The notes under the pieces: model-generated
Seen by the model: the letters and a program-made list of their open reading frames with translations, nothing else
The model's database searches: none
Told to the model about the DNA's origin: nothing
Shown here: piece after piece, positions 10,222 to 61,487 of the stretch
Numbering within the stretch: the stretch's first letter is position 1
How the letters are laid out: each line of letters opens with the position of its first letter
Source of the DNA: a virus
Taxonomy: Duplodnaviria; Caudoviricetes
Strand: one strand, 5' to 3'
IMG/VR virus record: IMGVR_UViG_3300037507_003370
Location: 1 to 64,000 of that record
Length of the DNA: 64,000 nucleotides
Position numbers and translations under genes: made by a program

Positions 10222-10254
10222 TTTCACTCTCTCTTTCTTATACCTATATATAGA

Positions 10255-10487: not shown

Positions 10488-10501
10488 TATATTCACTAGT
10501 C

Positions 10502-10581: not shown

Positions 10582-10587
10582 GTCTAA

Positions 10588-10797: not shown

Positions 10798-10808
10798 CTT
10801 TCCCCTTA

Positions 10809-11018
10809 TTATTTGCGAAGAGTAGCACCGTTCGCCTTAGCGTACCTATACATGGCACGCTCGTCAACCATGAAACGCTCTACGCCTTTCAGATCTTTGA
10901 AATCCCAATGGTAGGTAAGCACATCTGAACGAACCATCCAACGCGCTTCAACATCGGAAGTACGCTTGAGCGTGTAGCCTATCTTTTTCAACTCTTTTGC
11001 AATCGTTTTGCTGTTCAT
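10809..11018 (-). CDS. Hypothetical protein
   Basis: Coupled to upstream mini-protein. Confidence 0.7.
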   Translation of the reverse strand: MNSKTIAKELKKIGYTLKRTSDVEARWMVRSDVLTYHWDFKDLKGVERFMVDERAMYRYAKANGATLRK

Positions 11019-11021
11019 TTT

Positions 11022-11174
11022 TCACCTAGACGAAGAGATACGATTCATGAAGCGTATAGCATCTTCGGAAGTCTTGAACTTGCCTAGTAACTTACGATTT
11101 TTCCCGTCATACGCACCGGAAATAATCTGAAATACCTTGAAAACCTTACCGTGCTGTTCGAGCGAAGTGTTCAT
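11022..11174 (-). CDS. 50-aa mini-protein, paralog family A
   Basis: VFKVFQ...DGKNRKLLGKFKTSEDAIRFMN; GAGGAG RBS. Confidence 0.7.
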   Translation of the reverse strand: MNTSLEQHGKVFKVFQIISGAYDGKNRKLLGKFKTSEDAIRFMNRISSSR

Positions 11175-11203
11175 TTGTTTTCTCCTCTATTCCTTATATC
11201 GAC

Positions 11204-11232
11204 ATTATACCCGGTCATTCTTTAGATTGCAA
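11204..11232 (-). promoter_or_regulatory. sigma70-type promoter, class II
   Basis: TTGCAA-TCTAAAGaatgaccggg-TATAAT-gTCGATATAAG. Confidence 0.75.
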
Positions 11233-11270
11233 GTAAAATATTTCCTTAAAATATCGTAAGGTTATCTTCA

Positions 11271-11285
11271 GCAAATATCATGCCA
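11271..11285 (-). promoter_or_regulatory. sigma54-type -24/-12 motif
   Basis: TGGCATGATATTTGC. Confidence 0.55.
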
Positions 11286-11331
11286 AAAAACATTTTTTCT
11301 TTTAGCACACCGTTTGCTGTAGCGATTCGCC

Positions 11332-11411
11332 GCAAATCCTTATGTAGCAATACTTTACGTCAAACCTGAGCCCGCGGCTTTGCTGTAAATGCTTATGCAG
11401 CAATGGTTTAC
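11332..11411. repeat. 80-bp double-palindrome element
   Basis: GCAAATCCTTA-N5-CAATACTTTAC / 26 bp / GTAAATGCTTA-N5-CAATGGTTTAC. Confidence 0.9.
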
Positions 11412-11446
11412 GTCAAGCCTTTCCCCCTAGTGGGGGGTGTATCCCC

Positions 11447-11683
11447 CTAGGCAAACTCCTCCTCGCCTTGGAAATCGTCGAGCCATTCATCATCCGTTTC
11501 GGGGTATTCGTCACCCATGATCGAATCATAGCCCTCTCCGTCATCGAGGCCCGGAATATAATCGTCATCGTCCCCGTATCCCGTTTCCCAGATGCTACCA
11601 TCTTCGGCTACCATTTCTTCCCAAGCCTTGAACATATCTTCCTCATTGATTTCGCTCATATCGTATACAAAGTCATTGCTCAT
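11447..11683 (-). CDS. Highly acidic protein
   Basis: D/E-rich 78 aa with a single Lys. Confidence 0.7.
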   Translation of the reverse strand: MSNDFVYDMSEINEEDMFKAWEEMVAEDGSIWETGYGDDDDYIPGLDDGEGYDSIMGDEYPETDDEWLDDFQGEEEFA

Positions 11684-11693
11684 TGTATGATCC

Positions 11694-11888
11694 TTATGCA
11701 AAAAGGTTTTCGGAAGTTTCGCTCATCTTATCGGCATAAAGGCTACGATACCCTATGCCATCATTCCGCGTATCATCTTCGATCATGATCGTGATCAACT
11801 CACGATTGCTCATCTTCTTGATTTCTACAACCAAGCCCGTATATCGCTTACCATCATACGTTGTCGAGATTTCTGTATTCAGTGTCAT
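11694..11888 (-). CDS. Small hypothetical protein
   Basis: Own promoter, AAAGGA RBS. Confidence 0.7.
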   Translation of the reverse strand: MTLNTEISTTYDGKRYTGLVVEIKKMSNRELITIMIEDDTRNDGIGYRSLYADKMSETSENLFA

Positions 11889-11905
11889 TTCTTTTCCTTT
11901 TCCCT

Positions 11906-11933
11906 AGTATACTTATCGGCAATCCTACGTCAA
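11906..11933 (-). promoter_or_regulatory. sigma70-type promoter, class I
   Basis: TTGACG-taggattgCCGATAAg-TATACT. Confidence 0.7.
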
Positions 11934-11953
11934 CCCCACTAGAAAATATTTTT

Positions 11954-12118
11954 TCAGTGAGCAAAAGCCGGAAGCCTTTTGATGATATTTACCCTACACC
12001 CATCCTCACCATCCCACTTATCGAAAGCGGCAGTAGTTGCCTGATCCTCAGTATAAAACGGGCCGATGAAATCCAGTTCACAATCCCAAGCGTCTACGAT
12101 TTGAGCGAAGTATGTCAT
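11954..12118 (-). CDS. 54-aa hypothetical protein (from MTYFAQ)
   Basis: GGGAG RBS behind class II promoter; upstream ORF extension overlaps the promoter. Confidence 0.65.
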   Translation of the reverse strand: MTYFAQIVDAWDCELDFIGPFYTEDQATTAAFDKWDGEDGCRVNIIKRLPAFAH

Positions 12119-12148
12119 TTCTTTTTCTCCCTTTTCTCTTATATCGTC

Positions 12149-12176
12149 ATTATACAGAATCCACTTTAGATTGCAA
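12149..12176 (-). promoter_or_regulatory. sigma70-type promoter, class II
   Basis: TTGCAA-TCTAAAGtggattctg-TATAAT-gACGATATAAG. Confidence 0.75.
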
Positions 12177-12214
12177 GCACAAAGTTTCCTTACAATGTCG
12201 TAAGGATACCAGTA

Positions 12215-12229
12215 GCAAATGTCATACCA
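12215..12229 (-). promoter_or_regulatory. sigma54-type -24/-12 motif
   Basis: TGGTATGACATTTGC. Confidence 0.5.
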
Positions 12230-12280
12230 AGAATATAGTATTCCCTTAAACATAACATCGTGTCGATCATATGATTAGCC

Positions 12281-12342
12281 ATAAGTCTATATACAGCAAT
12301 ACTTTACGTCAAATCGGGCCGCCCCATTTTTCTAAATTTAAC
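12281..12342. repeat. 80-bp element, partial
   Basis: ATAAGTCTATA-N5-CAATACTTTAC, spacer with CGGGCCGC, second palindrome decayed. Confidence 0.7.
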
Positions 12343-12351
12343 ATACCCCCC

Positions 12352-12564
12352 TTAGGTAGCATGTATGAATACTTGTTCATTTTTTGTCTTGTTAGTAATG
12401 CTCACAATCCAGTTACGCCCACTACCATCCTCACGCATGATAGCATTGATGATGCCCACATGAGCGTTGCCCTTTGGGTCAATCACACTGCCATACTTGC
12501 CAGCACGCATAGCGGCCATAATCTTGTCGAGGCTATTCATTTTCTTTTCCTGTAGAGTGATCAT
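12352..12564 (-). CDS. Hypothetical protein
   Basis: Behind promoter 12565-12593; likely start MNSL. Confidence 0.7.
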   Translation of the reverse strand: MITLQEKKMNSLDKIMAAMRAGKYGSVIDPKGNAHVGIINAIMREDGSGRNWIVSITNKTKNEQVFIHAT

Positions 12565-12593
12565 ACTATATACCTTATTCCCTTACTTGTCAA
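12565..12593 (-). promoter_or_regulatory. sigma70-type promoter
   Basis: TTGACA-17-TATAGT. Confidence 0.7.
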
Positions 12594-12727
12594 GAGGCAT
12601 TCATGAATCGGATGGCTTCTTCACTATTCTTGAACGTACCAAGCAACTTCCTATTTTTCCCATCATTCTTATTCGAATCCATCCTATATACCTTATACTT
12701 CTTACCAACCTGAATGAGAGTCAGCAT
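12590..12727 (-). CDS. 45-aa mini-protein, paralog family A
   Basis: KYKVYR...DGKNRKLLGTFKNSEEAIRFMN. Confidence 0.7.
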   Translation of the reverse strand: MLTLIQVGKKYKVYRMDSNKNDGKNRKLLGTFKNSEEAIRFMNAS

Positions 12728-12754
12728 TTTGGCCTTTCTTTCTTGTGTGCTGCT

Positions 12755-12782
12755 ATTATACCATATTTATCGGCCATTGCAA
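12755..12782 (-). promoter_or_regulatory. sigma70-type promoter, class I
   Basis: TTGCAA-tggCCGATAAatatgg-TATAAT. Confidence 0.7.
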
Positions 12783-12829
12783 GACAAATCTTGAAATATA
12801 TTTTCGTGCCAAATAAAAATATTTTTAGA

Positions 12830-39852: not shown

Positions 39853-40446
39853 ATGGCAGATAATATTTTAATAAATGGATCTGAAATATTAAATATAGAA
39901 GATAATTTATTTGTATCTAATATAATTGAAATAAGTTCTGGATTTCCTGGTCCTCAAGGTCCGCCCGGTAGAGATGGTAGTGTTGGTCCTCGTGGACCAA
40001 AAGGAAAAACCGGCAGTAGTGGGTCTTTAGGATTTTCTTCTTATCAATCCACAGGTTTTGGCAAAGCTCCAGGAACAAGTCTTAATTCTGAACTAGATCC
40101 TATTTATTTACAGTTAACTAATACTGGAGCATATTTTATTAAAATAGGAATGACATTTGAGCCCCGCAATGGTGCCACAAGCTTAAGTTCTATTACTAGT
40201 GATGTTAACGCTTTAATTACTTTACCAAATCAAGATATTACATATATATATGGTATAGATTCCAATGATCTAAACAATACATATATTAGAAATATATCTA
40301 GTAGTGGTTTTTCTTTTGAAAAAGAAATATTTTGCGTAACATCTACTCCCGATTTAATTTTTAGAGTATTTTGGACTTCTGATAGTACTAGTAGTTCGTA
40401 TCTATATAGAAACAAAGGATACATGTTTGCTATAAAAGCGATTTAG
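39853..40446 (+). CDS. Protein with short collagen-like repeat
   Basis: GFPGPQGPPGRDGSVGPRGPKGKTG. Confidence 0.7.
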   Translation: MADNILINGSEILNIEDNLFVSNIIEISSGFPGPQGPPGRDGSVGPRGPKGKTGSSGSLGFSSYQSTGFGKAPGTSLNSELDPIYLQLTNTGAYFIKIGMTFEPRNGATSLSSITSDVNALITLPNQDITYIYGIDSNDLNNTYIRNISSSGFSFEKEIFCVTSTPDLIFRVFWTSDSTSSSYLYRNKGYMFAIKAI

Positions 40447-40451: not shown

Positions 40452-41432
40452 ATGAAAGTTAAAATTTTAATTTATCTATATTATCCTTCCTTATGGGAAG
40501 AATACAAAGAATTATTGCTAAAAATAAAAGACTATATAGATATAGATTTATTATTATGTAATGATGACATAGAAAATAATAACGAATATATTGAGAAAGA
40601 TTGCTTAAATACTTTTAATGGGAACAGTATTGTTAGATATGTGGATAATAGAGGAGTTGATATAGGACCATTCCTATTACAAATGAAAGATCTAGATCCA
40701 AAAAAGCATAAATACTTTATTAAGTTACATTCTAAAAAATCTCTATGGGGTCGATATAAAAATGTAAATTGGAGGGAATTTTTAGTAAATGCATTAATAG
40801 GAAATAAAAATATTTTCCAAAATAACATTTCTAAAATGGATAATAACAATAAGATTGGAATGATAGGATCCAGAGCTCTTATCTTGAATAATGATAAAGA
40901 ATTTTATAATAAAAATATAATAGAATATTTAATGACTCATATTTTAAATTTATCAGATTATAATAATGATAATTGTAAATTCATTGGAGGAACAATGTTC
41001 ATGGCAAAATCAGAATTATTTAAAAAATATTTCCCCAATGAGATCTGCGACACTCTATACAATACTTTAAATTTTGGAATGATCTCAGATATAAAAGAAG
41101 GAACCATTCCCCATTCGCTAGAAAGAATATTTGGATATATTGTGGGCTTAGACAATCAGACAATAGAAGTATCTGATAGTGAAGATTTTATTCTCATAGA
41201 AAATAAAAACTTAAAAGAAATTTTTAAAATAATAATTACATACAATAACAATTGTTTTATATTTAATAAACCATTAATATGTGGTAAATTAATTAATAAT
41301 GTAAATGAAGATAATGATATATTTATCAATTGGCTTCATCTTTCTAAAAATGGTTCTATTAAGAAATATATAAAAAATAGCGATAACTTATATAATCAAA
41401 AAGGTATGAGCGCTATTATAAAGACTAATTGA
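40452..41432 (+). CDS. RgpF-like (rhamnan synthesis F) glycosyltransferase-related protein
   Basis: YLYYP..W, NRGVDIGPF, KLHSKKS...WR..L, FIGGTMF, HSLERIFG. Confidence 0.75.
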   Translation: MKVKILIYLYYPSLWEEYKELLLKIKDYIDIDLLLCNDDIENNNEYIEKDCLNTFNGNSIVRYVDNRGVDIGPFLLQMKDLDPKKHKYFIKLHSKKSLWGRYKNVNWREFLVNALIGNKNIFQNNISKMDNNNKIGMIGSRALILNNDKEFYNKNIIEYLMTHILNLSDYNNDNCKFIGGTMFMAKSELFKKYFPNEICDTLYNTLNFGMISDIKEGTIPHSLERIFGYIVGLDNQTIEVSDSEDFILIENKNLKEIFKIIITYNNNCFIFNKPLICGKLINNVNEDNDIFINWLHLSKNGSIKKYIKNSDNLYNQKGMSAIIKTN

Positions 41433-47540: not shown

Positions 47541-50500
47541 ATGGCAAGAGCTTTCAATCTTACTGCTGAATTAAACCTAAGAGGACCTTCTAATCTTAGG
47601 CCAGTTATTAATGATATTAGAAGACAGCTGGGTAATATCACAGCGAATGTTAATGTTCGTATTGATAGAAATGCACAAAGATCAATTGATACTGCAAATG
47701 CTTCTTTGCAAAGACTAAATACTACTCTAGCGGCAACTGCAGCAAATGCCGTTAGAGCAAATGCTAATATTAATACTTTAGCTGGAACAATTAATAATTT
47801 ACGTAATGCTCTTAATGGAGCTGGCAATGGTTTAAGAGATCTAACAACTAATGTGGGAGCGGCTGCTAGAGATGTTACTGCTGCCGCAAGAGCCACAAGA
47901 GCAGCAACTTCTGAGATGGAAGAATTCGGAAGACAAGCAGGACTAGCTGTTAGAAGATTTGCTGCATTTAGTGTTTCAACAAGTGTTATTTATGGATTAG
48001 TAAATGCTGTTACTAGCGCAACCAGAGAGTTTATAGACTTTGATAGACAATTAGTAAGATTAACACAGATCACTGGAGAATCATATAAAAGTTTAGGAAG
48101 AATAACCGATACTATTACTGATTTATCAACCAATCTTGGAGTTAGTTCATCTAGCTTGATCACAATAGCAGATACTCTTGCTCAAGCAGGACTTAGTGCT
48201 GGTGAAACAGAAAAGGCATTAAGAGCATTGGCTTTAACTGCTTTGGCTCCGTCGTTTGATGATCTTAATGAAACAGTGGAAGGTTCTATTGCTTTGATGA
48301 GACAGTTCGGTATTAGCGCTGGACAACTTCAATCTGCTTTGGGTTCTGTTAATTCTGTGGCCGCAGCATTTGCAGTCGAATCTAGTGATATTATTACTGC
48401 TATTCAGCGTACTGGTGGTGTGTTCGCTAGTGCAAGTAAAGGAGTTAGCGAAGGAACAGATGCTCTTAACGAATTCATTGCTGTATTTACTAGCGTAAGA
48501 GCAACAACTCGTGAAAGTGCCGAGACTATTGCAACAGGATTGAGAACAATTTTTACTAGAATTCAAAGAGAAGGAACCATAGAAGCACTAAAAGAATACG
48601 GAGTTAATCTACAAGATGTTGAGGGTAAATTCGTCGGAGCATACAAAGCTGTTCAATTACTTAGCGAAGGATTAAATAGTCTAGATCCAAGAGATGTAAA
48701 GTTTTCTAGAATAGTAGAAGAACTTGGTGGCTTTAGACAAATTGGTAAGGTTCTACCTCTTATTCAACAGTTTGGAACAGCACAACAGGCACTTGCTGTT
48801 GCTCAAAGAGGATCTTCTAGTTTAACTCTAGATGCTGTTAAGGCCCAACAGTCATTAGCTGTACAATTTACTAAAACCAGAGAAAACTTTGTTGCATTAA
48901 TTAGAGAGATTGGTCAAAGTAATAGTTTTCAGAATTTAGTTAAGCTTGGACTCACACTAACTAATGTTTTAATAAGACTCGCAGATGTTGCTCAGCCGTT
49001 ACTACCAATAATAACAGCGATAGCTGCTGTTAGAGGAGGAAGAGCATTAACCAACTTTATTGGTGGATTTATAGGAGGATTAAGGCCTGGTGTTGGTGGC
49101 GATGCTGGAGGTGGCGGTGGCGGAGGTGGTGCTGGCGGCGGAGGTGGTGGACGAGGAGGAAGAGGCGGCGGTGGTGGAGGAGGTGGCGGTAGAGACGATT
49201 TCCGTTCATCCTTGCAAGATGTAACAACTTCTTTAGATAGTTTACAGGGATCCATTGACCCCTTAACAAATGCTATACAAGCATTATCTACTAATAGTAT
49301 AGCCGGATTAGTCTCACAGATATCCGTATTGAATACTTCAGTAGTAGACCTTAACGCAACAATTGTATCCAGGCCAGGAGGAACAGGTTTTGCTAGAGGC
49401 GGACTTGTCCCTGGACAAGGAAATAGAGATACTGTACCAGCAATGTTAACCCCTGGCGAATTTGTTATTAGAAAAAAGGCTGTTGAGACACTAGGGGCAG
49501 ATCAATTATATGGAATGAATAAATATAGTAATGGTGGTAGTATTAGATCTGGTAATAGGCTCAGAAGACAAAGATTTGCTAAGGGTGGAAAGGCAGCTAA
49601 ATTAGCAAGTATAGATGGTGACTTTAGAGCTGTTGACGGAGATACATTCGACGCAACTGTTACGCCAACAGGAGATCAGTTTACGGCAAGATTTAGAGTT
49701 GCCGAATTTGATACGTATGAAACAAGAGGTAAATCGAGTTTAGTTTCTACGGACAGAGCAAAAAAGATAATGTCTCTAAATCCAAAAGAACCCCCTTTAC
49801 AAGAGTCTTCCGGTAGATATAAAGTTCCAAAAAATTATAGAGTAACTTCTAGAAATGAAACAGCAGCAACAGCAGCAGCAGAAGCAACAAAGCAATTACA
49901 AAGTAAACTTGATCAATTCGTAGGAACAGCAGCAGCCGATAAAACCGTTCCTGGTGGAGGTGGTGTTGGTAGATACTTAGCTAAAACTGGATTTTCTATA
50001 GATGACGAGTACACAACAGGAAGAAAGTGGGACGAAGATGGGAATGAATTAAATATCGGAGGTATTGTCAAAAAATTTGCTCTTGGAGGAAAAGTACGAA
50101 GAAATGTTGGCTATATTGATTATGACGTTATCGCTAATGAAGCAAATAAAAGCATTGTAGAAAAAGGAATGTCAGAGCTTGGAGTTACTGGACCTAGACT
50201 TTATACTGATGCTTTAACAAAATTAGCAGTATCTTCGCGAAAAGCTGGAGATTTAGATAAATTAAAAGCAATTTACGGTGTTGCTGGCAGTGGCAAAACA
50301 ACATTAGCAAGAGGTCAAGGCACAGATAAAGGATCTTTAAGAGAAACAACTCGTTTTCCAATATTAGGTCCCGATGATATTAAAAAGGCAAATGAAATAT
50401 TAATATTAAGTAGTAGTGTTTCTAAGTCTAAAATGGAAGATTTTTTTACTGAAGTTGATAGAGTTTACGCACTTAGTTCTTCAACAAAATCTGAGCAAGA

Positions 50501-53500
50501 AAAAGTAATGGCTCAGAGATTAGGTAGAGATATCAGCGGAATAGGATTAGAAGGAAGAGCACCAGGAACAACAGGATCTGCATCATCAGATACCACTGTT
50601 GGAGAAGCATTATTATCTCAATTAGGTAAAAAATCAGTTGTGTTAGGAAGAGGCGATTCTGGAAATCTAAGAAGAAAACAAGGACAAGAACTTGTAGAAG
50701 TTATAAAAAAGAAATTAGCATTTACTTGGGGAGGTTTCGCACCAACAACAGCTGGTCATGAAAGTATCATGGATGCTGCTGCAGCAATGGGTTTTGCTCC
50801 AGAAGACTTTATTGCTCTTGTTGGAGCTAATGAAGGAATTAAGGCAGGAGATCCTAGTAGTTATAGAACAGCAGTATTTGATCAAGATTTTAGAGTATTG
50901 CTAGCCAAGGCCGGGTTCGGAGCCAAGGGAGCCACCGTTCTGCCAAAACCAAGAGATTTTGAAGTTCCTCAAGGTTTTGATATATCCGAAGGCACAGGAA
51001 GACGCAAAGTAATATTGCCACAAAAAGGAAGTAGAGCATTTGTAGCAGACAAAACTCCAGAACAAATGGCAAAATACAAAGATGCTGGTTATGATGTTAC
51101 TAATTTAGAAAGAACTGGCGGAATTAGCGGTACAATGGTTCGTGACTTAATTATGTCCGGTAAGATCGACCAATTGCAAGACGTTTTATCTCCTGGTGTT
51201 TACGATATTATATCAAAAAATTTACCAATATTACAGAATAGAGCTAATGTTTTACCTGAAATTATTAAACAAGTACAAGCTTCACAACAATCATCGGTTG
51301 ATGCTGTAGAAAAACAAATAACCGACATAGGAATCAAAAGAATTAATCGCAAACAAGCGGAGAGCGATCCGGAGTATGCTGCTAAAATTGCCTTATTAGA
51401 AGAGTTAAGAAAGAAAAAAACTAAATTACAAAGCGCTGGAGCTTTTGAGCCATACAGACTTTTAGATAAATTAGCATCAGATCAACCAGATAAATACGGA
51501 TTAAAGTTTGCTCAGGGAGGATTGATACAAAAATTTATGGCAGGAGAGATGGTTCAAAAACTTCCTGCCCCAGCGAGAAAAATAATTGATGCTCTTGGAG
51601 GGTTAGAACCAGCAGCAAAAATAGGTGGCGTTCGATCAACAGAAATATTAGAGATTTTAAAGAAAAAAGTTGTTAATCAATCACAAAAAACAATACAAGA
51701 TAAAATCTTAGCTCAATATGCAGAAGTTATTGGAGCAGAGCAGCAGGCTATGGATCAAGCAATGAAATTTGGCTTGGTTGGATTATTTGGAGAAACTAAA
51801 GTTGGAACTAATGATCAGGGTAGAACAATTTATGACCCTAAGTGGGACTATAGTAAACAATTTGGCCCTGAAGATATAGGAGGAAGAAACACCACAATAA
51901 TAGCTAGAGGATTAAGATCTCAATATGCAGAAGCTGTATATCAAATGCAAAGAGAGATATTTGGAGTTAATGAAAATTTTGCTAGAAATTTGGAAACAGC
52001 AGGAGGATTTGGAGCACAATCACTAGCAAATATTCAAGGGCCAGCTGTAAAAGCAGGACAGGCTGGCATAGAAGGGGCAATGATAGAGTTAGTTCTAGCA
52101 AGACTCGGAGCCCCATTAAGAGAAAATGCTCCTGCAAATAGACCAATAGATTATCCAGATGGACTAGGAGATGCGGCTAAGTTTTTTGGTATAGATCCGG
52201 ATATGCCAACAGAAGTTAAAAGAACTATTAATGGAGATAGTTTAGCGAGAACAAGAGAAGAAATTGAAAGATATTATAAAGAAGTTTTACAAGTTTTTGC
52301 TACTGGTGGAAAAGTTAAACTTTATCATGGATCTAATACAGGAATAAATGATAGTGTTTTAAATAGTTTTAAAGAAAAGGGAGCTCTTTCTAATATTGCT
52401 AAAGGCTATGGTCAAGGAGAAGGATTCTACTTATATACAGAAAAGAATAAAGCACAACAACAAGCTAATATGAGAGTTAATGGAGGAAGCAACTTTACTG
52501 TTGCTCAAGGCGATAGGTCAGGAAAGCCTATGGTATTAACTTTTAATGAACAATTAAGCCCTAAAGATTATGATTTAGATTATGAATTGCAAAAAGGACT
52601 AGTAGTACAATGGATGCATGATAATTACGATACTCTTAAAGATAAATATGCTCCTACTGAAAATCAAACCGGATTAAAAGGTAAGTTTGATAAAAATCCA
52701 GACGCTGGAATGATGTCGGTTGGAGTAAGTATTCAAGAAGGATCTCAAACATTAAAGTCCGAAGACGGAACAGAGTTTACCTTGCCTGGAGGATCAAGAA
52801 AATCTATTTATGCCGGAAGTGGGGGAGATGTTAGAGAAGGAGCTTTGCTTGGGCAGCTTATGTCTAGAATTCAATCTGGAGACCCCGAATTAGTAAATTC
52901 TTTTGAATCCAAACTTTTTGAAAAACCACTAGGATTAGCATTAAAGTATGTTGGATCATCACCGCTCAAGCCGAGTAATATTGAAACTTTTGCAGACGGT
53001 GGGTCGGTAGAAGGTCAAAAAAAGGAGAAAAACTTTGGAAAAATTGGAATAAAAAATAATGGGTCCGAAATTATAGCAGCATATTTGGGCACAAAAGATC
53101 GTAGTGGTATGGTTAGTGCAAAAAAAATGGCAGATAACTTATATACTGTCGGTTTGTCTAAAGCTAGTGAAGGATATGGTCCTAAGCTTTATGATATTGT
53201 TATGGAAGCGGCCACAGCCAATGGTGGTATGTTAGCTCCTGATAGAAATATTGTTAGCGATGCTGCAAAAGGTGTTTGGTCATATTATTTTAATAATAGA
53301 TCAGATGTAAGAAAAACACCACTAGATAGAAATCAATGGACACAGAACTCTGCCTTAATTGATCCTAAATTATTAGGAGATAAAAATACATGGCCACCAT
53401 ATTCTGATCCTGCTTGGATATTACAAAGTGGATATAGTAAAAATTCAGAGCTATTAAATAGCTCAGATATTGTCAATTTAAATGATGATAAATATAAGTC

Positions 53501-56500
53501 ATTTTTACAAAGTCAACAATTATCATTTTTTGCTCAAGGAGGATCAGTAGAAGATACTGTACCAGCATTATTAACTCCTGGTGAATTTGTAATTAATAAA
53601 AAAGCAGCTCAAAAAATTGGATATGGCAAACTTAAAAAATTAAATCATGCGGATAAAATACAGGGTTATAATAGAGGAGGAATTGTACATAGGTTCGCTG
53701 ATGGCGATGTTGTCCCTCCGTCTGGCCCAGGCTCAGGTGGAGATTCTGATCCAACAATAAGAGACTTAATGGAACGAATTAGACAGTTATCAGAAGTAAT
53801 AGACAGACTTTCTGCTACTGTAAGAGATTCGTCAGATACCAGAGAAAGAACACCCGCAGAAAGACCAGAAAGAAGACCAAGGACTAGAGAAGAAATTTTA
53901 GATAGATATGGATCTAGAGTAATTAATAATAGTTTTAGATCTATGGATAGATTTACTACTAGACTTAATGTACTTACTGGTGTTGTTGGAGTCGCAGCAA
54001 ATTTCTTAGCAGAAACTATAGGAGAAAAGTCTGCAGTTGGTGCGGTTGTACAGAGTTTTGCAAATAGCATCACCACAGCATCTGGAACAGTGTATAGTGC
54101 TGCTGGAGCAATAAAAGGAGCATATGAAGTATTACCAGAAGGTGTTCAAGAACTAGTTAGACAACGTATTGGATCTTTTACTGCTGGTGGTGGATTTGGT
54201 ACAACCGGAGTTCAAGCCGCAGGAGGAGCAGCAGCAGGATTAGCTATAGCCGCTGCGACTATTTATGCTGGAATAGAAGCATTTAAGGCATATAATGATG
54301 CTATTAGAAAACAAACAGAAGAAATAGCCAAAAATAATATGACTCAAGGTTTGGAAGAATTTGATAAAGCTTTAGAATTATATACAAAAAATACAACAGA
54401 TAATGCTTTTGCGCTCAAAGTTGCTGGCGAACAATTAGCCAAAGCAACTAGTGCAGCATTAACAATAGTAAATCTTAATAAAACTAATCCAGACAGAGGA
54501 TATGCTAGTATTATTGGAGAAAATATTGGGACCGTAGGAGGAGGTCTTGTTGGTGGTGCTGTTGGAGGAGCAACTGCTGGTGCAACAATTGGAACAGTAA
54601 TATTTCCTGGTGTTGGTACAGTAATAGGGGCCCTATTAGGAACTGCGATTGGTGCTACTGCGGGCTATGCGTCAGATCAAGCCGTAGCATATTTCTCTGG
54701 TAGAGGCGGACAAGAGCAGATTTCTCAAAGATCAGAAATAGCAAATAGATTTGGGACAGGGGCCTATACTCAATCATTATTTGATTCTAATACACAAACC
54801 AATCTTTCTAGATCCTTAGCTTCTGTTCAGGCAGCAGAAACTGCAGCAACTCTAACTCCAGTTAGACAAAGACAAGATCAATATTTTGAACAATTATTTA
54901 AATCGGGCGTTTCGGAATCTGAAATTCAATCAGCTCCAGAATGGCAACAACAAGCAGAATTAATAGCCAGATCCAATGCTGCTACAGAAGAACAACTTAG
55001 ACTTATAGATGCAGACCTATCTGTTTCTAAAGAACTAAGAGATGCAAAAAAACAAGAAATTATTGCATCCACAGCTAGTGCAGAATTAAGAAAACAAGCA
55101 GAACAAGTTAGAATACAAAGAGAACAAGAAAGAGCAGCAGATGAAAGTAAATCATATATGGTTAGCTTGGAAAGAAGCTTTCAGAATATGGAACAGGCAA
55201 TGGACTCGACCTCTTACTCTATTGATAAATTAAGATCGTCTGCAGAATTATCAGCCGCAGCTTTACAGGGTCAGGCAAAAATTGGGAAAGTTACATTAGA
55301 TGCTATAGATGTAATCCGTAATCCTAATGTTGCCAGTAGACAAGAAAAAACACAAGCATATGGCTTAGCTGGTTCATTAATGGGATCTCAAGGCAAAAGC
55401 GTTACCGGATTACTTGAGTATGGATCAAATATAGAGGGTAGAATTTTATCGTCAATTAATAATGCTTTGGCTGAAAACTCTAAAGGATCATCTGAAAAAA
55501 TAGGAGCAGCTGTTAATAGGTCTGTTGCGAACGAAATAGAAGGATTAGATATTGGAGATTCATTAAAACAAAAATTAGCATCGCAAACTTCTGCCGCAGT
55601 TTCCAAAATGAGGACAGATGGTGATGAAAAGATTGATTTTGATGACTTGGCAGATAAAGTACCAGGATTAGCAAAAGTTGTTGATGCAACTAAAAGAGCC
55701 CAAGAAATGGCTGTTAAAAGACTGGAGTTTTTCCAGCAGTCACTTAATGAATACTCAGAGTCTATAAATAGTCTTGCAGAACTACAATATAATATTGGAG
55801 AAAGATTAAGAAGAGTTAATAACTTAAGAATCAAGTCTGAGGAAGATCTATCAAGAGCACTTGGAAAATCAACCAGTTTTGAAGCTACCAAGTCTAATGT
55901 TAGATCAAATGTTCAGTCTTTAGCAGGAACAACTGACCCAAGACAAATATTCGAAAATTTAGCAAATTTAGAACAGCAAAGACAGCAGCAACAATCAAGA
56001 GTAACTTCTGCTGCTAACAGAGGAGCAGTTCAAGAATATGTAGTAATGACTAATCAATTAAAGACTACTACATTACAAATGAGAGAGAATCACGCTGCTT
56101 TAAAAGAATTAGCTGAAAGTAGCGATGTTGCATCAGCAGCATTGAATAAAATAAATGATATACAACAACAGAATGCTGCTAGAACTAATATCTTAGAAAG
56201 ATATGTAACATCAACACCACAAGAACAAAATCAACTCTCTTCTGCTTTTGAAAGACTACAAAATAATATGGATGGCGCCACAAATAGCATGTGGGATTCT
56301 GTAAATGTTCAGAAAGCATATAGAGACTCACTAACAAGCGGTTCTACCCAAGCAGAAGCAATGAATAAGGCCCAAGAGGCTGCTGCACAAGATCGTAAAG
56401 AGACCTTAGATGCATTTAATATGATAGCTCCATTACTAGGAGATCAACAAAATGAATTAAAGGCTAATGTATTAGAAAGTATGATGAGAGAATCTGGTGT

Positions 56501-59500
56501 TCAAATGTCTCCATTATTTGAAAAGGCTCTTCAAGGATTAAGAAATCCAGAAAGAGATCCTCAAATGGATGCTGCTATTAAAGAATATCAAGAAGCCAAT
56601 AGGCTACAACAAGAAGCCAATGTATATCTTGCTATGTTAGATGGAAAAGTAGCACAAGACATGGCAACAAAATCAGACGAATTATTAAGAACATCATTAG
56701 CAACAGTAACTCAAAAATTCGAATTAGCAGAAAGTAGTGATGTAAAAAATAAAATTAATAGTATAGACAGTAGACTTAGAGATGGAATTAAAGTATTTCC
56801 TCAAGGTAATATTGGTGGTGGTTCTTCTGATGATGTAACCACAGCAGCTAAAGGTGGATACATAACATATAAGGCTGTTGGAGGCTCAATATTTAAGCCC
56901 AAAGGTACCGATACTGTGCCTGCCATGTTAACTCCTGGAGAATTTGTTGTTAACAGATCAGCAACTCAAAAGCATGGTTCATTATTAGAGTCTATTAATA
57001 GTGGACAATTTGCCAAAGGAGGAAAAGTAACATATCGAGCAGCTGGTGGTATTGTTGGAGACGTAAAATCACCGCATCTTAAAGATTTTAGCGATCCTTA
57101 TGAGGACTTGAGAGGACAACCATTAACAGGATCTTTCTTCTCTAAGCTAGGATCTAGTGATGATGTTGCTAAAAATTTATTGGATTTAGAACAAGGCTTT
57201 GGAGCTTTACAAGGATACCAAGCATCAGCCTATCCTACTTTTAATAACTCTGGTTCAACAGCAGACGGTCTTGATAAACAGTCAACAACAAAATGGATTA
57301 AAGATAATAGATCTCCAACCGGAGGTAAACTAGGTTGGTTTCCTGATCTAACTGTTTTTCACGGATCCGCAGGCAATTTAGGCTATTTACCAATATTCTG
57401 GGGTGCAAATGCTATTGCTGGTGCAACTGGAGCCACCGTTACAGCCAATCGTAAATCATTACAAAAACAGATGGTTACCAAGGATCTATTAGATTTAGGA
57501 AATCCAGATATTTTTGATGTTTTAAATGACAGATCAGCAAGCGGAAAAGGACCTAGAGCAAGAACAACTCTTTTATCAGAAGACCAAGCTAAATTACAGA
57601 AAGAAAAACTAACATCGATTTTTGATCAGGTTGACAAAGGATTGTCTGATGTTAAACAAAAAGAAATTAATTTATCAAAAGACGGCGGCGCCATAAATTC
57701 TGCAGCAAATATTGGTCAATATGGCGCAAGTTTTAGAAAATATGGACTCATATTAGGATCTTCAATACCAGATAAATATATGGGTCTTAGTTTTAATAAA
57801 CCAAACACTTCTATAGACCAATCTTTAGTAGGAGGAAATTTATCTGAGCCATCTTTTAGCGTTACTAAATATGGCTATGCGACATCTTCTACATCTCCAT
57901 TGGCAAATTCAACTAATACAGCAGTAATATCTGGGGGTATTCAAACAATACCAACAGAAGATCAGCTTAAGTCTTTTACCGATAAATATAAATCAGTTAT
58001 ACAAGTAGAAGAATGGAGAGCTTATATAGATAAACTAGATAAAGATAAGTCAAGAAGCACTACTCCTATAGAAGAACAAACTAACGCTAGAAATAAAGCC
58101 TTAAGAAAATTAATTAATAATCAAATAACACATATCCAACTCAAAGAAGAAGATTTGAGCGATGAATTTAAAAAGATGGCTGGCATAGATGGAGATTTTG
58201 AAAAATTAGATGTATATTCAGAAGCTTTTAAAGGTAGATGGCCTAATACAGAGTCTATGAAAACTAATTTTGGAATTAAAGATGAAGACCTTAAAAAATA
58301 TTGGCAAACTGGAGCAAATGATAAATTATTTACATTACAATATAGCAAAAAATTAAGAAATCTTTTAACCGGAGCAGAATTTGATCAACAGTATACTAAA
58401 GGATTGCCTTGGTCTTGGGGAGAAAATAGCATATTCACAGCAGAAACTATGGAAGCAGTTAAAAAAGAAATGGCATTATCTTCAGGGGCCTCTTCTTTTA
58501 AAGTCATTCCTAAAGTATTTAGTAAATCATATACAGACACAAGAGATCCTAATCAATATACAGCAAAAATCAAATTCCCATATGACTCATTATCATCTCT
58601 TTTATTTGATAAAGATAGTATGGACTATACCGCTCAATCACTTACTGCATTAGTTCCATGGTGGGAAAATCAACAAAAAATAGATCCTTTTAGTATTAAT
58701 CCATTTGTCGGCTTGGCTCAGCCTAACGCTGTGATTCCAGCGTATCAGGACGAAAAAAGTATGGAAAAATTTGTTAAATATTGGGTTGAAAAAGAAATTT
58801 TCAACAAACCATCCATTTATCTGCCTCTTTCGCCTATAAAACTACCTACAGCACTAGATAAATTTGTTGGAAGTGTTAATAATACAACACAATTCGATAG
58901 AGAAGTAACAGATAGTGAAGGAGGTAAGAATTTTGAACAAGGTAATTATGTTCCAGAGAATGCGGAAGTTGCTGATATATCTAATGCTTTATTTAAAAAA
59001 TATGAATATATATACGCAAAAAGATCTCAAGATACAAGCGCTAATAATGAATCAAAATTAAGGGAAAACTTATTACAATATAATTTAGCATCTAGTCTTG
59101 GTAAATCACTCTTAAAGAAAGATGGATTAAAATTACCATTATGGGATCCTGATCAAGCTTTTGTAACAGCAGATCCAGTTTGGCAAGCAGTTAAAGACAC
59201 GGCTCCAGACCTTGGAGTAGATGGATATAGGAACGCTGCCGAATGGAAAAGAAGCTATATATTAGCTGCCGCCGGAACAATAGCAGATCCGCCAGATAAG
59301 ATCAAAGCAGACGAGGACATTTTTCCTGCTCAAAATTATATAGCTTGGATTAGAGCAAAAACCGTAGAAGCCTATTCTGCAAATGAAGAGAGTCAGGATA
59401 AATATAAACAATCAGGAGGAGTAAATATATCTTCTTTGGGTAAGTTAGTTTCTGCTTGGAGATTTATGGAAGAGTCTAGAACAGCTGGAGGAAGCGCAAC

Positions 59501-61487
59501 ATCATATAAGGACGATAATAGTCCTAAAGATAATCCTTTTTCTAAACGCCTATATAATAGATATGAAAAAGATCTAAAGAAATTTACTAAAAAAGTTACT
59601 TTACAAGCACCAGACAGAAACAAAAAAGGAGATAAGCCATGGGAAAGAGACTATGATGACACTGGAGCTGGATTAGAAAGAACATATTGGGACAATGCTA
59701 AATTAGCTTCTGATGCCGGATTTGTTCAAACTGTTTTATCAGAACAAGAAGGTAAAATAGATGATAGAAGAGCAAGAACTCTTTTAAGTTATCGTAGAGG
59801 ATATAAAAAAGATTCGGTACAACCAGAAGAACAAGCAATTTTAGATGCTTATGGTACAATGGTAGACAAAAAAGGAAGAGAAGACATAGCATTTGATCTT
59901 ACAACAGGAGGAGCTAACGAAGCTAAAGCGCCAACAACTTTTACTGGTCCTGGCGGCGTTTATGAACAAATGATGGATCAATATCAAGTTATGCAAATTG
60001 GCAGACGTTCTATGCTAAGAGCATTAATAGAAGATAGAGCAAGATCCAATTTTGATGCTCCAAATTTTGAAAATTCTGGATACGAAGAGTGGTGGGAAGA
60101 TATGTCAAATGATCTCGAATATATTGAAGAATATTTATCTGCTAGAGATTATATGTTATTGAAAGCAACCTCTTCTGCAGAATTGTATAATCCTGCTGTT
60201 GGAGCAGCAGTACAAGCGAAAATAAGTCAAGTGTCTGGAGGTTTACCAGACTTTTTATTAAATGCTATGCCAGGACTAACAGGAGGAGCAGACTATAATT
60301 CGTTATATGGAACAGTCGTAGACAACATGGCTCTTTCGGCGCAAGAGTTTGTAGATTCTATAACTGGCCCAAGACCAGTTGATCCGAGTAACCCAACACT
60401 TGGAACACTAACAGATGATCAAGCTCAGAGAGTTAATGAGCTTAGAAAATTAATAGCTACAGAATTTGGCCAAACAAGAGATATAAAACCAAGCGTTTAT
60501 ACTCAAGAAATTTTTGATATGTATAAAACATACATTGAAGACAATTATAATAATGCTAATAAAGCATATAGCAAATTAAATGAAGGAACTATGTTGCAAC
60601 CTCCCAATGAGATTTGGGATCGTAGCGATTTAGTTGTTCTAGCAGACAAAGCTTCGGCTAATAGTCCAAATACTTTTAGAGCATTTTATTTAGCTTCTGT
60701 TGGTGCTGGTAAAAACTTAGCAGAACTTAAAAAAGACGAGATGCAGGGATTTGGAGGACTATTACCTAGTGCTCAAAAGGGTGCCGAAGCATTAGGAATG
60801 TCCTCTGCCGAACCAGATAAAAAGAGCCAACCTCAAACCAGAGCTTCTGGAGGATTGATATATAATCAAAGTTACAAGCCGAATAATATTGATTGGTCAG
60901 CAAAAGGCACAGACACTGTTCCTGCAATGTTAACACCAGGAGAATTTGTAATTAACAAAGATTCTAGTCAAAGATACATGCCTATTTTAGAAGCTATTAA
61001 TCAAGGAAACTATACTCAGGGCAATATTGTTCAGTATGCTAGCAGAGGAGGAACAATAAGACCAATATACAGAAACATGGGTGGTATTGTAGGAGGAAAC
61101 CAACAGCAAGGTGTATTAAATTCATATATTGGATTGGATGAAAAATCTATAGCAGCTTTAAGGGACTTTACGGCCAAATTTGATCAATTTGCTAAACAGC
61201 TTTTGGAACTTAGACTACCAACTATTGGAATTGATAGCACTAGCTTGGGAGCATTAACTACATTTAGTAATAGGTTTGATGAATTTAGCAAGAGTTTGCT
61301 CAAATTGAATATACCGCCGGTGATTACGATAAACGCAAAACATGATGTTAACGTCAATATTAATGGAGCTAGTGTGTTTAACAATCTCAATGCCTATGTT
61401 AGCGATATAGTAAAGAGCGAAATTGATAAAGCATTTAGTCAATTAGCTAAGGTTTCCGAAAATGCTATTAATTTGTATGGGTCATAA
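47541..61487 (+). CDS. Giant tape measure protein with embedded enzyme-like domains (4648 aa)
   Basis: N-terminal TMP core (FDRQLVRL...ALAPSF..NSVAAAFAVESSDI..), glycine zipper at aa ~2330-2375, four DTVPA(M/L)LTPGEFV modules. Confidence 0.88.
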   Translation: MARAFNLTAELNLRGPSNLRPVINDIRRQLGNITANVNVRIDRNAQRSIDTANASLQRLNTTLAATAANAVRANANINTLAGTINNLRNALNGAGNGLRDLTTNVGAAARDVTAAARATRAATSEMEEFGRQAGLAVRRFAAFSVSTSVIYGLVNAVTSATREFIDFDRQLVRLTQITGESYKSLGRITDTITDLSTNLGVSSSSLITIADTLAQAGLSAGETEKALRALALTALAPSFDDLNETVEGSIALMRQFGISAGQLQSALGSVNSVAAAFAVESSDIITAIQRTGGVFASASKGVSEGTDALNEFIAVFTSVRATTRESAETIATGLRTIFTRIQREGTIEALKEYGVNLQDVEGKFVGAYKAVQLLSEGLNSLDPRDVKFSRIVEELGGFRQIGKVLPLIQQFGTAQQALAVAQRGSSSLTLDAVKAQQSLAVQFTKTRENFVALIREIGQSNSFQNLVKLGLTLTNVLIRLADVAQPLLPIITAIAAVRGGRALTNFIGGFIGGLRPGVGGDAGGGGGGGGAGGGGGGRGGRGGGGGGGGGRDDFRSSLQDVTTSLDSLQGSIDPLTNAIQALSTNSIAGLVSQISVLNTSVVDLNATIVSRPGGTGFARGGLVPGQGNRDTVPAMLTPGEFVIRKKAVETLGADQLYGMNKYSNGGSIRSGNRLRRQRFAKGGKAAKLASIDGDFRAVDGDTFDATVTPTGDQFTARFRVAEFDTYETRGKSSLVSTDRAKKIMSLNPKEPPLQESSGRYKVPKNYRVTSRNETAATAAAEATKQLQSKLDQFVGTAAADKTVPGGGGVGRYLAKTGFSIDDEYTTGRKWDEDGNELNIGGIVKKFALGGKVRRNVGYIDYDVIANEANKSIVEKGMSELGVTGPRLYTDALTKLAVSSRKAGDLDKLKAIYGVAGSGKTTLARGQGTDKGSLRETTRFPILGPDDIKKANEILILSSSVSKSKMEDFFTEVDRVYALSSSTKSEQEKVMAQRLGRDISGIGLEGRAPGTTGSASSDTTVGEALLSQLGKKSVVLGRGDSGNLRRKQGQELVEVIKKKLAFTWGGFAPTTAGHESIMDAAAAMGFAPEDFIALVGANEGIKAGDPSSYRTAVFDQDFRVLLAKAGFGAKGATVLPKPRDFEVPQGFDISEGTGRRKVILPQKGSRAFVADKTPEQMAKYKDAGYDVTNLERTGGISGTMVRDLIMSGKIDQLQDVLSPGVYDIISKNLPILQNRANVLPEIIKQVQASQQSSVDAVEKQITDIGIKRINRKQAESDPEYAAKIALLEELRKKKTKLQSAGAFEPYRLLDKLASDQPDKYGLKFAQGGLIQKFMAGEMVQKLPAPARKIIDALGGLEPAAKIGGVRSTEILEILKKKVVNQSQKTIQDKILAQYAEVIGAEQQAMDQAMKFGLVGLFGETKVGTNDQGRTIYDPKWDYSKQFGPEDIGGRNTTIIARGLRSQYAEAVYQMQREIFGVNENFARNLETAGGFGAQSLANIQGPAVKAGQAGIEGAMIELVLARLGAPLRENAPANRPIDYPDGLGDAAKFFGIDPDMPTEVKRTINGDSLARTREEIERYYKEVLQVFATGGKVKLYHGSNTGINDSVLNSFKEKGALSNIAKGYGQGEGFYLYTEKNKAQQQANMRVNGGSNFTVAQGDRSGKPMVLTFNEQLSPKDYDLDYELQKGLVVQWMHDNYDTLKDKYAPTENQTGLKGKFDKNPDAGMMSVGVSIQEGSQTLKSEDGTEFTLPGGSRKSIYAGSGGDVREGALLGQLMSRIQSGDPELVNSFESKLFEKPLGLALKYVGSSPLKPSNIETFADGGSVEGQKKEKNFGKIGIKNNGSEIIAAYLGTKDRSGMVSAKKMADNLYTVGLSKASEGYGPKLYDIVMEAATANGGMLAPDRNIVSDAAKGVWSYYFNNRSDVRKTPLDRNQWTQNSALIDPKLLGDKNTWPPYSDPAWILQSGYSKNSELLNSSDIVNLNDDKYKSFLQSQQLSFFAQGGSVEDTVPALLTPGEFVINKKAAQKIGYGKLKKLNHADKIQGYNRGGIVHRFADGDVVPPSGPGSGGDSDPTIRDLMERIRQLSEVIDRLSATVRDSSDTRERTPAERPERRPRTREEILDRYGSRVINNSFRSMDRFTTRLNVLTGVVGVAANFLAETIGEKSAVGAVVQSFANSITTASGTVYSAAGAIKGAYEVLPEGVQELVRQRIGSFTAGGGFGTTGVQAAGGAAAGLAIAAATIYAGIEAFKAYNDAIRKQTEEIAKNNMTQGLEEFDKALELYTKNTTDNAFALKVAGEQLAKATSAALTIVNLNKTNPDRGYASIIGENIGTVGGGLVGGAVGGATAGATIGTVIFPGVGTVIGALLGTAIGATAGYASDQAVAYFSGRGGQEQISQRSEIANRFGTGAYTQSLFDSNTQTNLSRSLASVQAAETAATLTPVRQRQDQYFEQLFKSGVSESEIQSAPEWQQQAELIARSNAATEEQLRLIDADLSVSKELRDAKKQEIIASTASAELRKQAEQVRIQREQERAADESKSYMVSLERSFQNMEQAMDSTSYSIDKLRSSAELSAAALQGQAKIGKVTLDAIDVIRNPNVASRQEKTQAYGLAGSLMGSQGKSVTGLLEYGSNIEGRILSSINNALAENSKGSSEKIGAAVNRSVANEIEGLDIGDSLKQKLASQTSAAVSKMRTDGDEKIDFDDLADKVPGLAKVVDATKRAQEMAVKRLEFFQQSLNEYSESINSLAELQYNIGERLRRVNNLRIKSEEDLSRALGKSTSFEATKSNVRSNVQSLAGTTDPRQIFENLANLEQQRQQQQSRVTSAANRGAVQEYVVMTNQLKTTTLQMRENHAALKELAESSDVASAALNKINDIQQQNAARTNILERYVTSTPQEQNQLSSAFERLQNNMDGATNSMWDSVNVQKAYRDSLTSGSTQAEAMNKAQEAAAQDRKETLDAFNMIAPLLGDQQNELKANVLESMMRESGVQMSPLFEKALQGLRNPERDPQMDAAIKEYQEANRLQQEANVYLAMLDGKVAQDMATKSDELLRTSLATVTQKFELAESSDVKNKINSIDSRLRDGIKVFPQGNIGGGSSDDVTTAAKGGYITYKAVGGSIFKPKGTDTVPAMLTPGEFVVNRSATQKHGSLLESINSGQFAKGGKVTYRAAGGIVGDVKSPHLKDFSDPYEDLRGQPLTGSFFSKLGSSDDVAKNLLDLEQGFGALQGYQASAYPTFNNSGSTADGLDKQSTTKWIKDNRSPTGGKLGWFPDLTVFHGSAGNLGYLPIFWGANAIAGATGATVTANRKSLQKQMVTKDLLDLGNPDIFDVLNDRSASGKGPRARTTLLSEDQAKLQKEKLTSIFDQVDKGLSDVKQKEINLSKDGGAINSAANIGQYGASFRKYGLILGSSIPDKYMGLSFNKPNTSIDQSLVGGNLSEPSFSVTKYGYATSSTSPLANSTNTAVISGGIQTIPTEDQLKSFTDKYKSVIQVEEWRAYIDKLDKDKSRSTTPIEEQTNARNKALRKLINNQITHIQLKEEDLSDEFKKMAGIDGDFEKLDVYSEAFKGRWPNTESMKTNFGIKDEDLKKYWQTGANDKLFTLQYSKKLRNLLTGAEFDQQYTKGLPWSWGENSIFTAETMEAVKKEMALSSGASSFKVIPKVFSKSYTDTRDPNQYTAKIKFPYDSLSSLLFDKDSMDYTAQSLTALVPWWENQQKIDPFSINPFVGLAQPNAVIPAYQDEKSMEKFVKYWVEKEIFNKPSIYLPLSPIKLPTALDKFVGSVNNTTQFDREVTDSEGGKNFEQGNYVPENAEVADISNALFKKYEYIYAKRSQDTSANNESKLRENLLQYNLASSLGKSLLKKDGLKLPLWDPDQAFVTADPVWQAVKDTAPDLGVDGYRNAAEWKRSYILAAAGTIADPPDKIKADEDIFPAQNYIAWIRAKTVEAYSANEESQDKYKQSGGVNISSLGKLVSAWRFMEESRTAGGSATSYKDDNSPKDNPFSKRLYNRYEKDLKKFTKKVTLQAPDRNKKGDKPWERDYDDTGAGLERTYWDNAKLASDAGFVQTVLSEQEGKIDDRRARTLLSYRRGYKKDSVQPEEQAILDAYGTMVDKKGREDIAFDLTTGGANEAKAPTTFTGPGGVYEQMMDQYQVMQIGRRSMLRALIEDRARSNFDAPNFENSGYEEWWEDMSNDLEYIEEYLSARDYMLLKATSSAELYNPAVGAAVQAKISQVSGGLPDFLLNAMPGLTGGADYNSLYGTVVDNMALSAQEFVDSITGPRPVDPSNPTLGTLTDDQAQRVNELRKLIATEFGQTRDIKPSVYTQEIFDMYKTYIEDNYNNANKAYSKLNEGTMLQPPNEIWDRSDLVVLADKASANSPNTFRAFYLASVGAGKNLAELKKDEMQGFGGLLPSAQKGAEALGMSSAEPDKKSQPQTRASGGLIYNQSYKPNNIDWSAKGTDTVPAMLTPGEFVINKDSSQRYMPILEAINQGNYTQGNIVQYASRGGTIRPIYRNMGGIVGGNQQQGVLNSYIGLDEKSIAALRDFTAKFDQFAKQLLELRLPTIGIDSTSLGALTTFSNRFDEFSKSLLKLNIPPVITINAKHDVNVNINGASVFNNLNAYVSDIVKSEIDKAFSQLAKVSENAINLYGS

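Follow-up and report, generated by a model that had tools for sequence, protein, structure and literature searches.

In the 64,000-nucleotide window analysed here (positions 1 to 64,000 of the IMG/VR virus record IMGVR_UViG_3300037507_003370, Duplodnaviria; Caudoviricetes), the gene for the tail tape measure protein (TMP) carries a module in which a predicted P-loop kinase precedes an adenylyltransferase of the HIGH superfamily. The module occupies nucleotides 50091-51506, which correspond exactly and in frame to residues 851-1322 of the 4648-residue TMP, and as judged from structural models it is probably an injected polyvalent effector that has a NadR-type pairing of enzymes and belongs to a new subfamily of HIGH nucleotidyltransferases. 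A preliminary description had proposed a P-loop kinase joined to a HIGH-class nucleotidyltransferase inside the TMP, and this was borne out by the predicted folds, by the conserved catalytic signatures and by the presence of PF10145 in the carrier protein. We found no description of a TMP-borne kinase-adenylyltransferase in the literature.

Layout and conservation of the module

The carrier is encoded by a single uninterrupted open reading frame (ORF; 47541..61487, + strand, 4648 aa). Residues 190-384 match PF10145 PhageMin_Tail (E 9.8e-24, 84.8 bits against a cut-off of 33.2), TMP families of PHROGs (phrog_4211, 28, 167 and others) match residues 40-583, and genes for the large terminase and for fibres are located upstream on this strand. 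By its PF10145/PHROG N-terminal region and its tail-gene context, the ORF encodes a phage tail tape measure protein.

All features of the module lie on the + strand. The N-terminal domain with the P-loop kinase fold (residues 851-1054, 50091..50702), assigned from the domain model, the structure matches and the conserved K919, contains the Walker A motif GVAGSGKT at residues 913-920 (50277-50300). The core of the HIGH-superfamily adenylyltransferase (residues 1055-1227, 50703..51221), assigned from VIA-align, Foldseek, profile matches and invariant residues, contains GGFAPTTAGH at residues 1064-1073 (50730-50759) and ISGTMVR at residues 1195-1201 (51123-51143). It is followed by a C-terminal helical extension (residues 1228-1322, 51222..51506), recognized from the helices of the model, the profile and PF16581 in relatives, which ends in a conserved P(D/E)KYGL. 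By motif mapping, the Walker A motif, the TxGH strand and the KMSKS equivalent were all found where they had previously been placed. The two domains also lie, as had been claimed, within one GG-bounded segment, the borders of which are FALGG upstream (residues 846-850, 50076..50090, within IGGIVKKFALGG) and FAQGG downstream (residues 1323-1327, 51507..51521), two of the eight F-A-x-G-G sites in the TMP.

Searched exhaustively with phmmer, 1.84 billion cluster representatives yielded 99 relatives of the module, 75 of them at E < 1e-30, and a word-indexed search yielded 81. Apart from short fragments, all relatives span both halves, and the proteins that carry them are nearly all longer than 1500 aa (up to ~7700 aa) and nearly all have the same TMP core. 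A profile search among proteins of 260-826 aa returned TMP fragments only and no free-standing homologue, tblastn against 50,697 cultured phage records gave no match to the module, and phmmer with the single sequence against PDB gave only chance matches, such as cytochrome c'.

Conservation was evaluated in an alignment of 62 relatives with 25-71% identity. K919 of the Walker A motif, H1073 of TxGH, and S1196 and R1201 of ISGTxxR were invariant. Conservation of at least 90% was observed around the P-loop at G913, G916 and G918, and in the rest of the kinase half at D929, D946 (95%), D973, R996, R1006 and D1017. In the transferase half, G1064, P1068, T1070 (94%), G1072 (98%), R1109, R1118, R1191 and T1198 (98%) were conserved in at least 94% of the relatives, and R1234 was conserved in 97%. 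Invariance at this level of divergence suggests that the catalytic positions are under purifying selection. An AlphaFold2 model of the whole 472-residue module, built with the alignment of the relatives, reached a pLDDT of 93.5 and a pTM of 0.87, indicating a fixed arrangement of the kinase and transferase domains. Residues 851-1322 are one conserved two-domain unit, and the models and conserved residues make it very probable that both domains are active enzymes.

Predicted fold of the transferase half

Foldseek, which the preliminary description had proposed as a check, returned the HIGH transferase fold (probability 1.0) and, for the separately modelled N-terminal domain, a P-loop kinase fold. 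For the transferase half this probability was obtained in both PDB and Swiss-Prot, and the viral library gave the same fold. The fold is thus that of a nucleotidyltransferase, and with K919, H1073, S1196 and R1201 invariant, neither a wrong fold nor dead catalytic residues were found.

When VIA-align was run without a Foldseek pre-filter, archaeal nicotinamide mononucleotide (NMN) adenylyltransferase (NMNAT; 1f9a) ranked first (Z 13.5, root mean square deviation (rmsd) 2.7, 155/164 aligned), with NadM, NadD and phosphopantetheine adenylyltransferase (PPAT) within one Z unit. Among the top 1000 Foldseek matches, Escherichia coli PPAT (CoaD, 1b6t) ranked first (Z 14.0, rmsd 2.5 Å, 142 aligned), with NadD (5das) at Z 13.9 and NMNAT at 13.6. 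Overall, the PPAT, NadD and NMNAT structures fell at Z 13.5-14.0 and rmsd 2.4-2.9 Å over 142-156 residues. TmcAL (5y0r, Z 10.2, 200 aligned) and MJ0951 (3gmi, Z 9.1, 198 aligned) scored lower, with alignments that reach into the helical tail, which is modelled as helices at positions 378-413, 427-451 and 453-464 with a pLDDT of about 90 or higher.

A profile built from the 62 homologous modules was run against PDB sequences. The best match was MJ0951 (3gmi, E 2e-8), owing mainly to the ISGT motif and the helices that follow (profile positions 344-405), followed by the phage NadR-like enzyme Bas30_86 (9x6f, E 1.1e-6), archaeal NMNAT (1f9a, E 1.5e-4), a RibF-like protein (3op1, E 1.8e-3), NadR (6gye, E 6.7e-3) and several PPATs (E about 0.02). 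PF16581 HIGH_NTase1_ass matched 30 of the 62 relatives (best 2.2e-7), and the window protein scored 19.9-21 bits, under the 26.7-bit cut-off. PF01467 matched seven of the 62 at E < 0.01 (best 4.3e-7), and the window protein reached 12 bits, below the gathering threshold of 21 bits; the branch is divergent, and it is by fold and motifs that it is assigned to the superfamily. The weak matches to NCBIfam models included TIGR00482 in eight relatives as well as the NadR, NadM and archaeal NMNAT models, the NMNAT type being the commonest among characterised families, while the PPAT model TIGR01510 matched five of the 62 at E 0.013 or weaker and PPAT models stayed far below cut-off. A feature search of the ESM Atlas gave small viral CTP_transf_like clusters as the only nearest matches of this half.

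By its modelled fold and its TxGH and ISxTxxR motifs, the C-terminal half is an adenylyltransferase of the HIGH superfamily, certain in fold but not in subfamily. On the same model it is a distinct branch, with a PPAT/NMNAT-like core and an MJ0951/TmcAL-like tail. In MJ0951 and TmcAL (PF05636 and PF16581), too, helices form a C-terminal domain behind the Rossmann core, but they reach a structural score of only Z 9-10, and TmcAL lacks a kinase partner. PPAT, the best structural match, has no helical tail.

Predicted fold of the kinase half

Folded alone, the kinase half gave an AlphaFold model with a pLDDT of 91.9. Its top VIA-align match was a Neisseria zeta toxin (6epg_B, Z 8.0, rmsd 4.0, 157 aligned), and the next matches (Z 5.9-6.6) were uridylate and adenylate (nucleoside monophosphate) kinases, dephospho-CoA kinases, AvrRxo1 and polynucleotide kinase (PNK); the 50 best were mostly P-loop kinases or sulfotransferases. 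In agreement with this, Foldseek returned 6eph_B (E 2.5e-3, probability 1.0), and clusters of the AlphaFold database named zeta toxin matched with probabilities of 0.97-1.0 and TM scores of 0.44-0.56. Zeta/PezT and AvrRxo1 are thus the nearest fold in three libraries, at a moderate level (Z 8.0, TM about 0.5), and unlike zeta/PezT the module has no antitoxin context. In the ESM Atlas the kinase half had no usable feature match, and the shape search gave TM < 0.5.

A profile of the kinase domain run against PDB sequences and Pfam scans of the 62 relatives gave only generic Walker A matches (UvrA, STAND, AAA), and the Zeta_toxin model was not among the Pfam families listed for these relatives. 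D946 follows predicted strand 2 (model strand 84-90), and a helix and loop that resemble a lid contain R996 and R1006. In zeta toxin, T4 PNK and shikimate kinase, the general base follows strand 2. The pattern of D946 and the lid arginines in the model points to a hydroxyl kinase. Taken together, the structural matches support a divergent P-loop kinase fold that is predicted to be nearest to zeta toxins. The N-terminal motif GYIDxDV was also considered as motif I of a HAD enzyme and was rejected, since this region belongs to the modelled kinase-fold domain.

Distribution and companion modules

To describe the distribution of the module we used 120 TMPs picked solely by similarity of the TMP core. 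The module was present in 61 of these nearest relatives, in a single copy each, and lacking in 59. It was also present in seven of 15 related IMG/VR phage genomes that are at least 90% complete. Its position inside the TMP ranges from residue 13 to about residue 3000, and this variation, together with its presence in about half of the relatives, indicates accessory cargo and not a structural requirement of the tail. The distribution is accessory and arms-race-like. In the set of 120, module-bearing TMPs were longer than the others (median 5717 vs 4009 aa). Among the 15 genomes, a free-standing CTP_transf_like gene was found just once, in IMGVR_UViG_3300032294_002797 (145338-145622, a 147-aa frame, 67 bits), the TMP of which lacks the kinase-transferase module. 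Direct terminal repeats are present in several related IMG/VR records.

Along the giant TMP, the module is one of several optional cargoes and is set off by short conserved GG linkers. Its upstream border in nearly all relatives is GG(L/I)(V/I)QKFAxGG or G(Y/F)IPNFA. In the window protein the recurring motif GG(L/I)(V/I)(Q/K)KFAxGG separates TMP modules (50040-50090, 51507-51550 and other borders), and in more distant relatives G(Y/F)IPNFA stands in its place. The border motif may serve for cleavage or as a docking peptide.

Putative companion modules were assigned from motifs and weak matches. In 131 module-bearing TMPs, a nuclease-like region corresponding to residues 1328-1585 occurred in 88, a GNAT-like region in 44, an ART-like region in 21 (16%) and an SNase-like region in 20. 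The nuclease-like region directly follows the module in the window protein (51522-52295), has an invariant E...D...(T)EVK(R) in 26 relatives, resembling PD-(D/E)xK, and had no sequence match in PDB. In the set of 120, and with kinship ignored, GNAT-like regions were found in 23/61 module-bearing and 3/59 other TMPs (Fisher p 1e-5), ART-like regions in 13/61 and 3/59, and SNase-like regions in 10/61 and 0/59. The suggestion that the module feeds a neighbouring ART-like domain is weakened by these counts, an ART-like region accompanying the module in only 21 of 131 TMPs and in 13 of 61 in the unbiased set. In the 400 aa downstream of the module, Pfam scans of 79 relatives revealed no HAD phosphatase partner, only a few GNAT matches and one ART match.

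Proposed activity and the case for NAD+

In the scheme that we infer for the delivery of the module into the cell, for the order of its reactions and for its substrate, the TMP would exit the tail at infection and deliver the module, in a few copies, to the cytoplasm of the host before gene expression. The kinase would then spend ATP to phosphorylate a hydroxyl of a ribose- or nucleoside-type metabolite, and the transferase would join AMP, or another nucleoside monophosphate, to the new phosphate, following the two-step logic of NadR (nicotinamide riboside to NMN to NAD+), RibF and HldE. To this general scheme, a TMP-borne kinase-then-adenylyltransferase that is released at ejection and acts on a metabolite, we assign about an even chance. 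In the model the kinase packs against a minimal adenylyltransferase core with a helical tail, forming a self-contained module that looks catalytically competent.

The closest known parallel is NARP3, in which the phage enzyme Bas30_86, a NadR-like NMNAT-RNK, together with a PnuC-like importer turns nicotinamide riboside into NAD+ and overcomes Sir2-HerA (PMC13464706). Like the module, NadR and Bas30_86 (PDB 9x6f/9x6h) combine a HIGH adenylyltransferase and a small P-loop kinase in one polypeptide; Bas30_86 has both TxGH and ISxTxxR, and it is a phage enzyme that serves to counter the defence of the host (PMC13464706). Whereas the module is embedded in a virion protein, NARP3 is expressed from a gene of its own and has a PnuC-like partner, and in NadR the kinase is C-terminal to the NMNAT.

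The preliminary description had likened the pairing to the NadR combination in reverse order and had proposed an injected activity for the repair of NAD or nucleotides. Rebuilding NAD+ against NAD-depleting defences is the likeliest single assignment of a substrate, albeit well short of an even chance. In its favour are the match to Bas30_86, which is the second-best match of the profile to a solved structure and shares TxGH, and the NMNAT-type NCBIfam models, which gather most of the weak matches among relatives. The NadR comparison holds for the pairing of a P-loop kinase with an adenylyltransferase but not for the kinase itself or for the NMN-binding loop, and the case for NAD+ repair is offset by the tie of NMNAT with PPAT and NadD and by the genomic context.

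Several observations weigh against the NAD+ assignment and, in part, against the general scheme. The order of the domains is the reverse of that in NadR, the kinase being N-terminal here, and the kinase aligns with NadR over 19 residues of the Walker A region only (hhalign probability 6%). The NMN-binding loop of Bas30_86 comprises E80, P84, Y86, G89 and W90 (PMC13464706). This loop (EYPNGW) is not conserved in the 62 relatives, among which P1143 is its sole conserved residue and the glycine and aromatic positions vary. Neither NadV/NAPRTase nor PnuC (PF04973), which accompanies Bas30_86 in NARP3, was found in the 15 related genomes, seven of which carry the module. The modelled fold ties PPAT, NadD and NMNAT and cannot separate them, while the highest identity (19-21%), along with a common TxGH, belongs to PPAT; hhalign against E. 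coli proteins was not discriminating (CoaD 36% over 54 columns, NadR 26%, NadD 1%). For the other half, no kinase family was identified by sequence, nothing beyond the Walker A loop being matched, and the domain is called a kinase on the strength of a predicted fold whose Z score is middling. As a virion contains only about three to six copies of the TMP, the refilling of a metabolite pool is quantitatively doubtful, and a folded globular module of 470 aa is too large for the lumen of the tail tube, which counts against delivery.

Expression of the known phage pathways that rebuild NAD+ (NARP1-3), and of other metabolic counter-defences, follows entry. If injected, a two-enzyme, ATP-dependent module carried within the TMP would act ahead of all transcription, and the idea of the polyvalent injected protein would then extend to the protein that determines tail length. 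The TMP described here, with two enzymatic domains identified by fold and further putative ones, may resemble the polyvalent proteins of phages and conjugative elements, huge virion-associated polypeptides with unrelated enzymatic domains, for which early injection is supposed (Iyer et al., 2017; PMC5512222). That survey records fusions of zeta-like kinases to MuF, whereas a text search of it showed no kinase-adenylyltransferase pair among the domains and no mention of tape measure proteins (PMC5512222); the carrier in the present case is the TMP itself.

The family is abundant, with hundreds of metagenomic TMPs of 2000-7700 aa, and it combines a confidently modelled structure with evident residues to mutate; it has no cultured representative and no free-standing relatives detectable by sequence. 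It also raises the physical question of how a tail protein carries and releases globular enzymes of ~470 aa. A broader proposal, which we regard as a long shot, is that the TMPs in a large, uncultured clade of freshwater jumbo phages are modular injection vehicles for ATP-dependent metabolic enzymes. The module would then be a new enzyme family, with a substrate so far unseen in conflicts between phage and host, that might, for example, cap the 5' ends of the incoming, terminally redundant genome by phosphorylation and then adenylylation, or chemically disarm a nucleotide of defence signalling within seconds of entry, before phage expression.

Alternative activities

Three further explanations were weighed. 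In the first, which we consider unlikely, the module acts on nucleic acids in end healing, capping or RNA modification: a PNK-like kinase would phosphorylate a 5'-OH, and the transferase would adenylylate the 5'-phosphate or, in the manner of TmcAL, activate a carboxylate and modify tRNA. Its targets, tRNAs that have been cleaved or the termini of the linear phage genome on entry, would be of low copy number, and a few injected molecules would suit them better than metabolite pools. The top sequence relative of the transferase, MJ0951, belongs to the UPF0348/TmcAL family, PF16581 recurs in almost half of the aligned relatives, and the structural alignment with TmcAL includes the helical tail, which is basic and has a conserved arginine. 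The fold matches of the kinase include PNK (4gp6, Z 5.9) and Pnkp1 (Z 4.7), the direct terminal repeats of related genomes imply exposed ends, and nuclease-like modules occur in the same TMP. The Rossmann core, however, is nearer to the small-molecule adenylyltransferases (Z 13.5-14.0) than to TmcAL and MJ0951, zeta toxins are closer than PNK to the kinase, and the 400 aa downstream of the module in the 79 relatives contain no phosphatase or ligase partner. To our knowledge, no enzyme of the HIGH superfamily adenylylates polynucleotide 5'-phosphates.

In the second, the order of the reactions is reversed: the transferase would make an ADP-linked product, and the domain resembling zeta toxins, AvrRxo1 and dephospho-CoA kinase would then phosphorylate the adenosine 3'-OH, leading from phosphopantetheine through dephospho-CoA to CoA, or from NMN through NAD to 3'-NADP. 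This would either provide a cofactor, perhaps to the GNAT-like modules, or yield a toxic nucleotide. Eukaryotic CoA synthase is a fusion of PPAT and dephospho-CoA kinase, that is, of an adenylyltransferase and a P-loop kinase. PPAT is the top structural match of the transferase, with the highest identity and the same TxGH, and the kinase matches AvrRxo1 (Z 6.0) and several dephospho-CoA kinases (Z 5-6.2) in addition to the zeta toxin (Z 8.0). The structure matches further include bifunctional sulfurylase/APS-kinase enzymes, human PAPSS1 having the same kinase-then-transferase order, and GNAT-like regions are enriched in module-bearing TMPs, in counts that ignore kinship. Against this, the kinase matches are all weak and the sequence similarity, including that to CoaE by hhalign, ends at Walker A, PPAT models remain far below cut-off, and 62% of the module-bearing TMPs lack a GNAT-like module. 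We know of no defence that depletes CoA, and we consider the reversed order quite improbable.

The third, that the module is not an injected effector at all, but that the TMP is a polyprotein cleaved at its GG linkers to release enzymes that act late in the producing cell, or that the module is a non-catalytic structural spacer, is very unlikely: linker motifs do bracket the module in nearly all relatives, a folded domain of 470 aa would not fit inside a tail tube of established dimensions, and the clade is uncultured, with no relative found among the cultured phage records, but the invariant catalytic residues argue against a spacer, no protease was identified, there is no obvious reason to fuse late-acting enzymes into an essential tail protein, and the general view of enzyme domains in TMPs and in polyvalent virion proteins is that they are injected (PMC5512222).

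Other features of the window

Further along the TMP, residues 2243-2326 (54267-54518) gave a match of 16-20 bits, below cut-off, to the nucleoside 2-deoxyribosyltransferase family PF05014, which was set aside as probably spurious, the region overlapping a glycine-zipper stretch. The virion gene block also includes an ORF similar to RgpF (rhamnan synthesis protein F; E 1.5e-18) and a collagen-repeat ORF (40452-41432 and 39853-40446, respectively). Positions 1-13500 of the window differ from the rest in GC content (0.41-0.45 vs 0.27-0.40 elsewhere) and have a negative GC skew and only short ORFs, on both strands. Four tRNA genes lie in this region on the minus strand, those for Asp, Arg and Glu and a fourth (3561-3638), which has an irregular anticodon loop and was left unnamed by ARAGORN.

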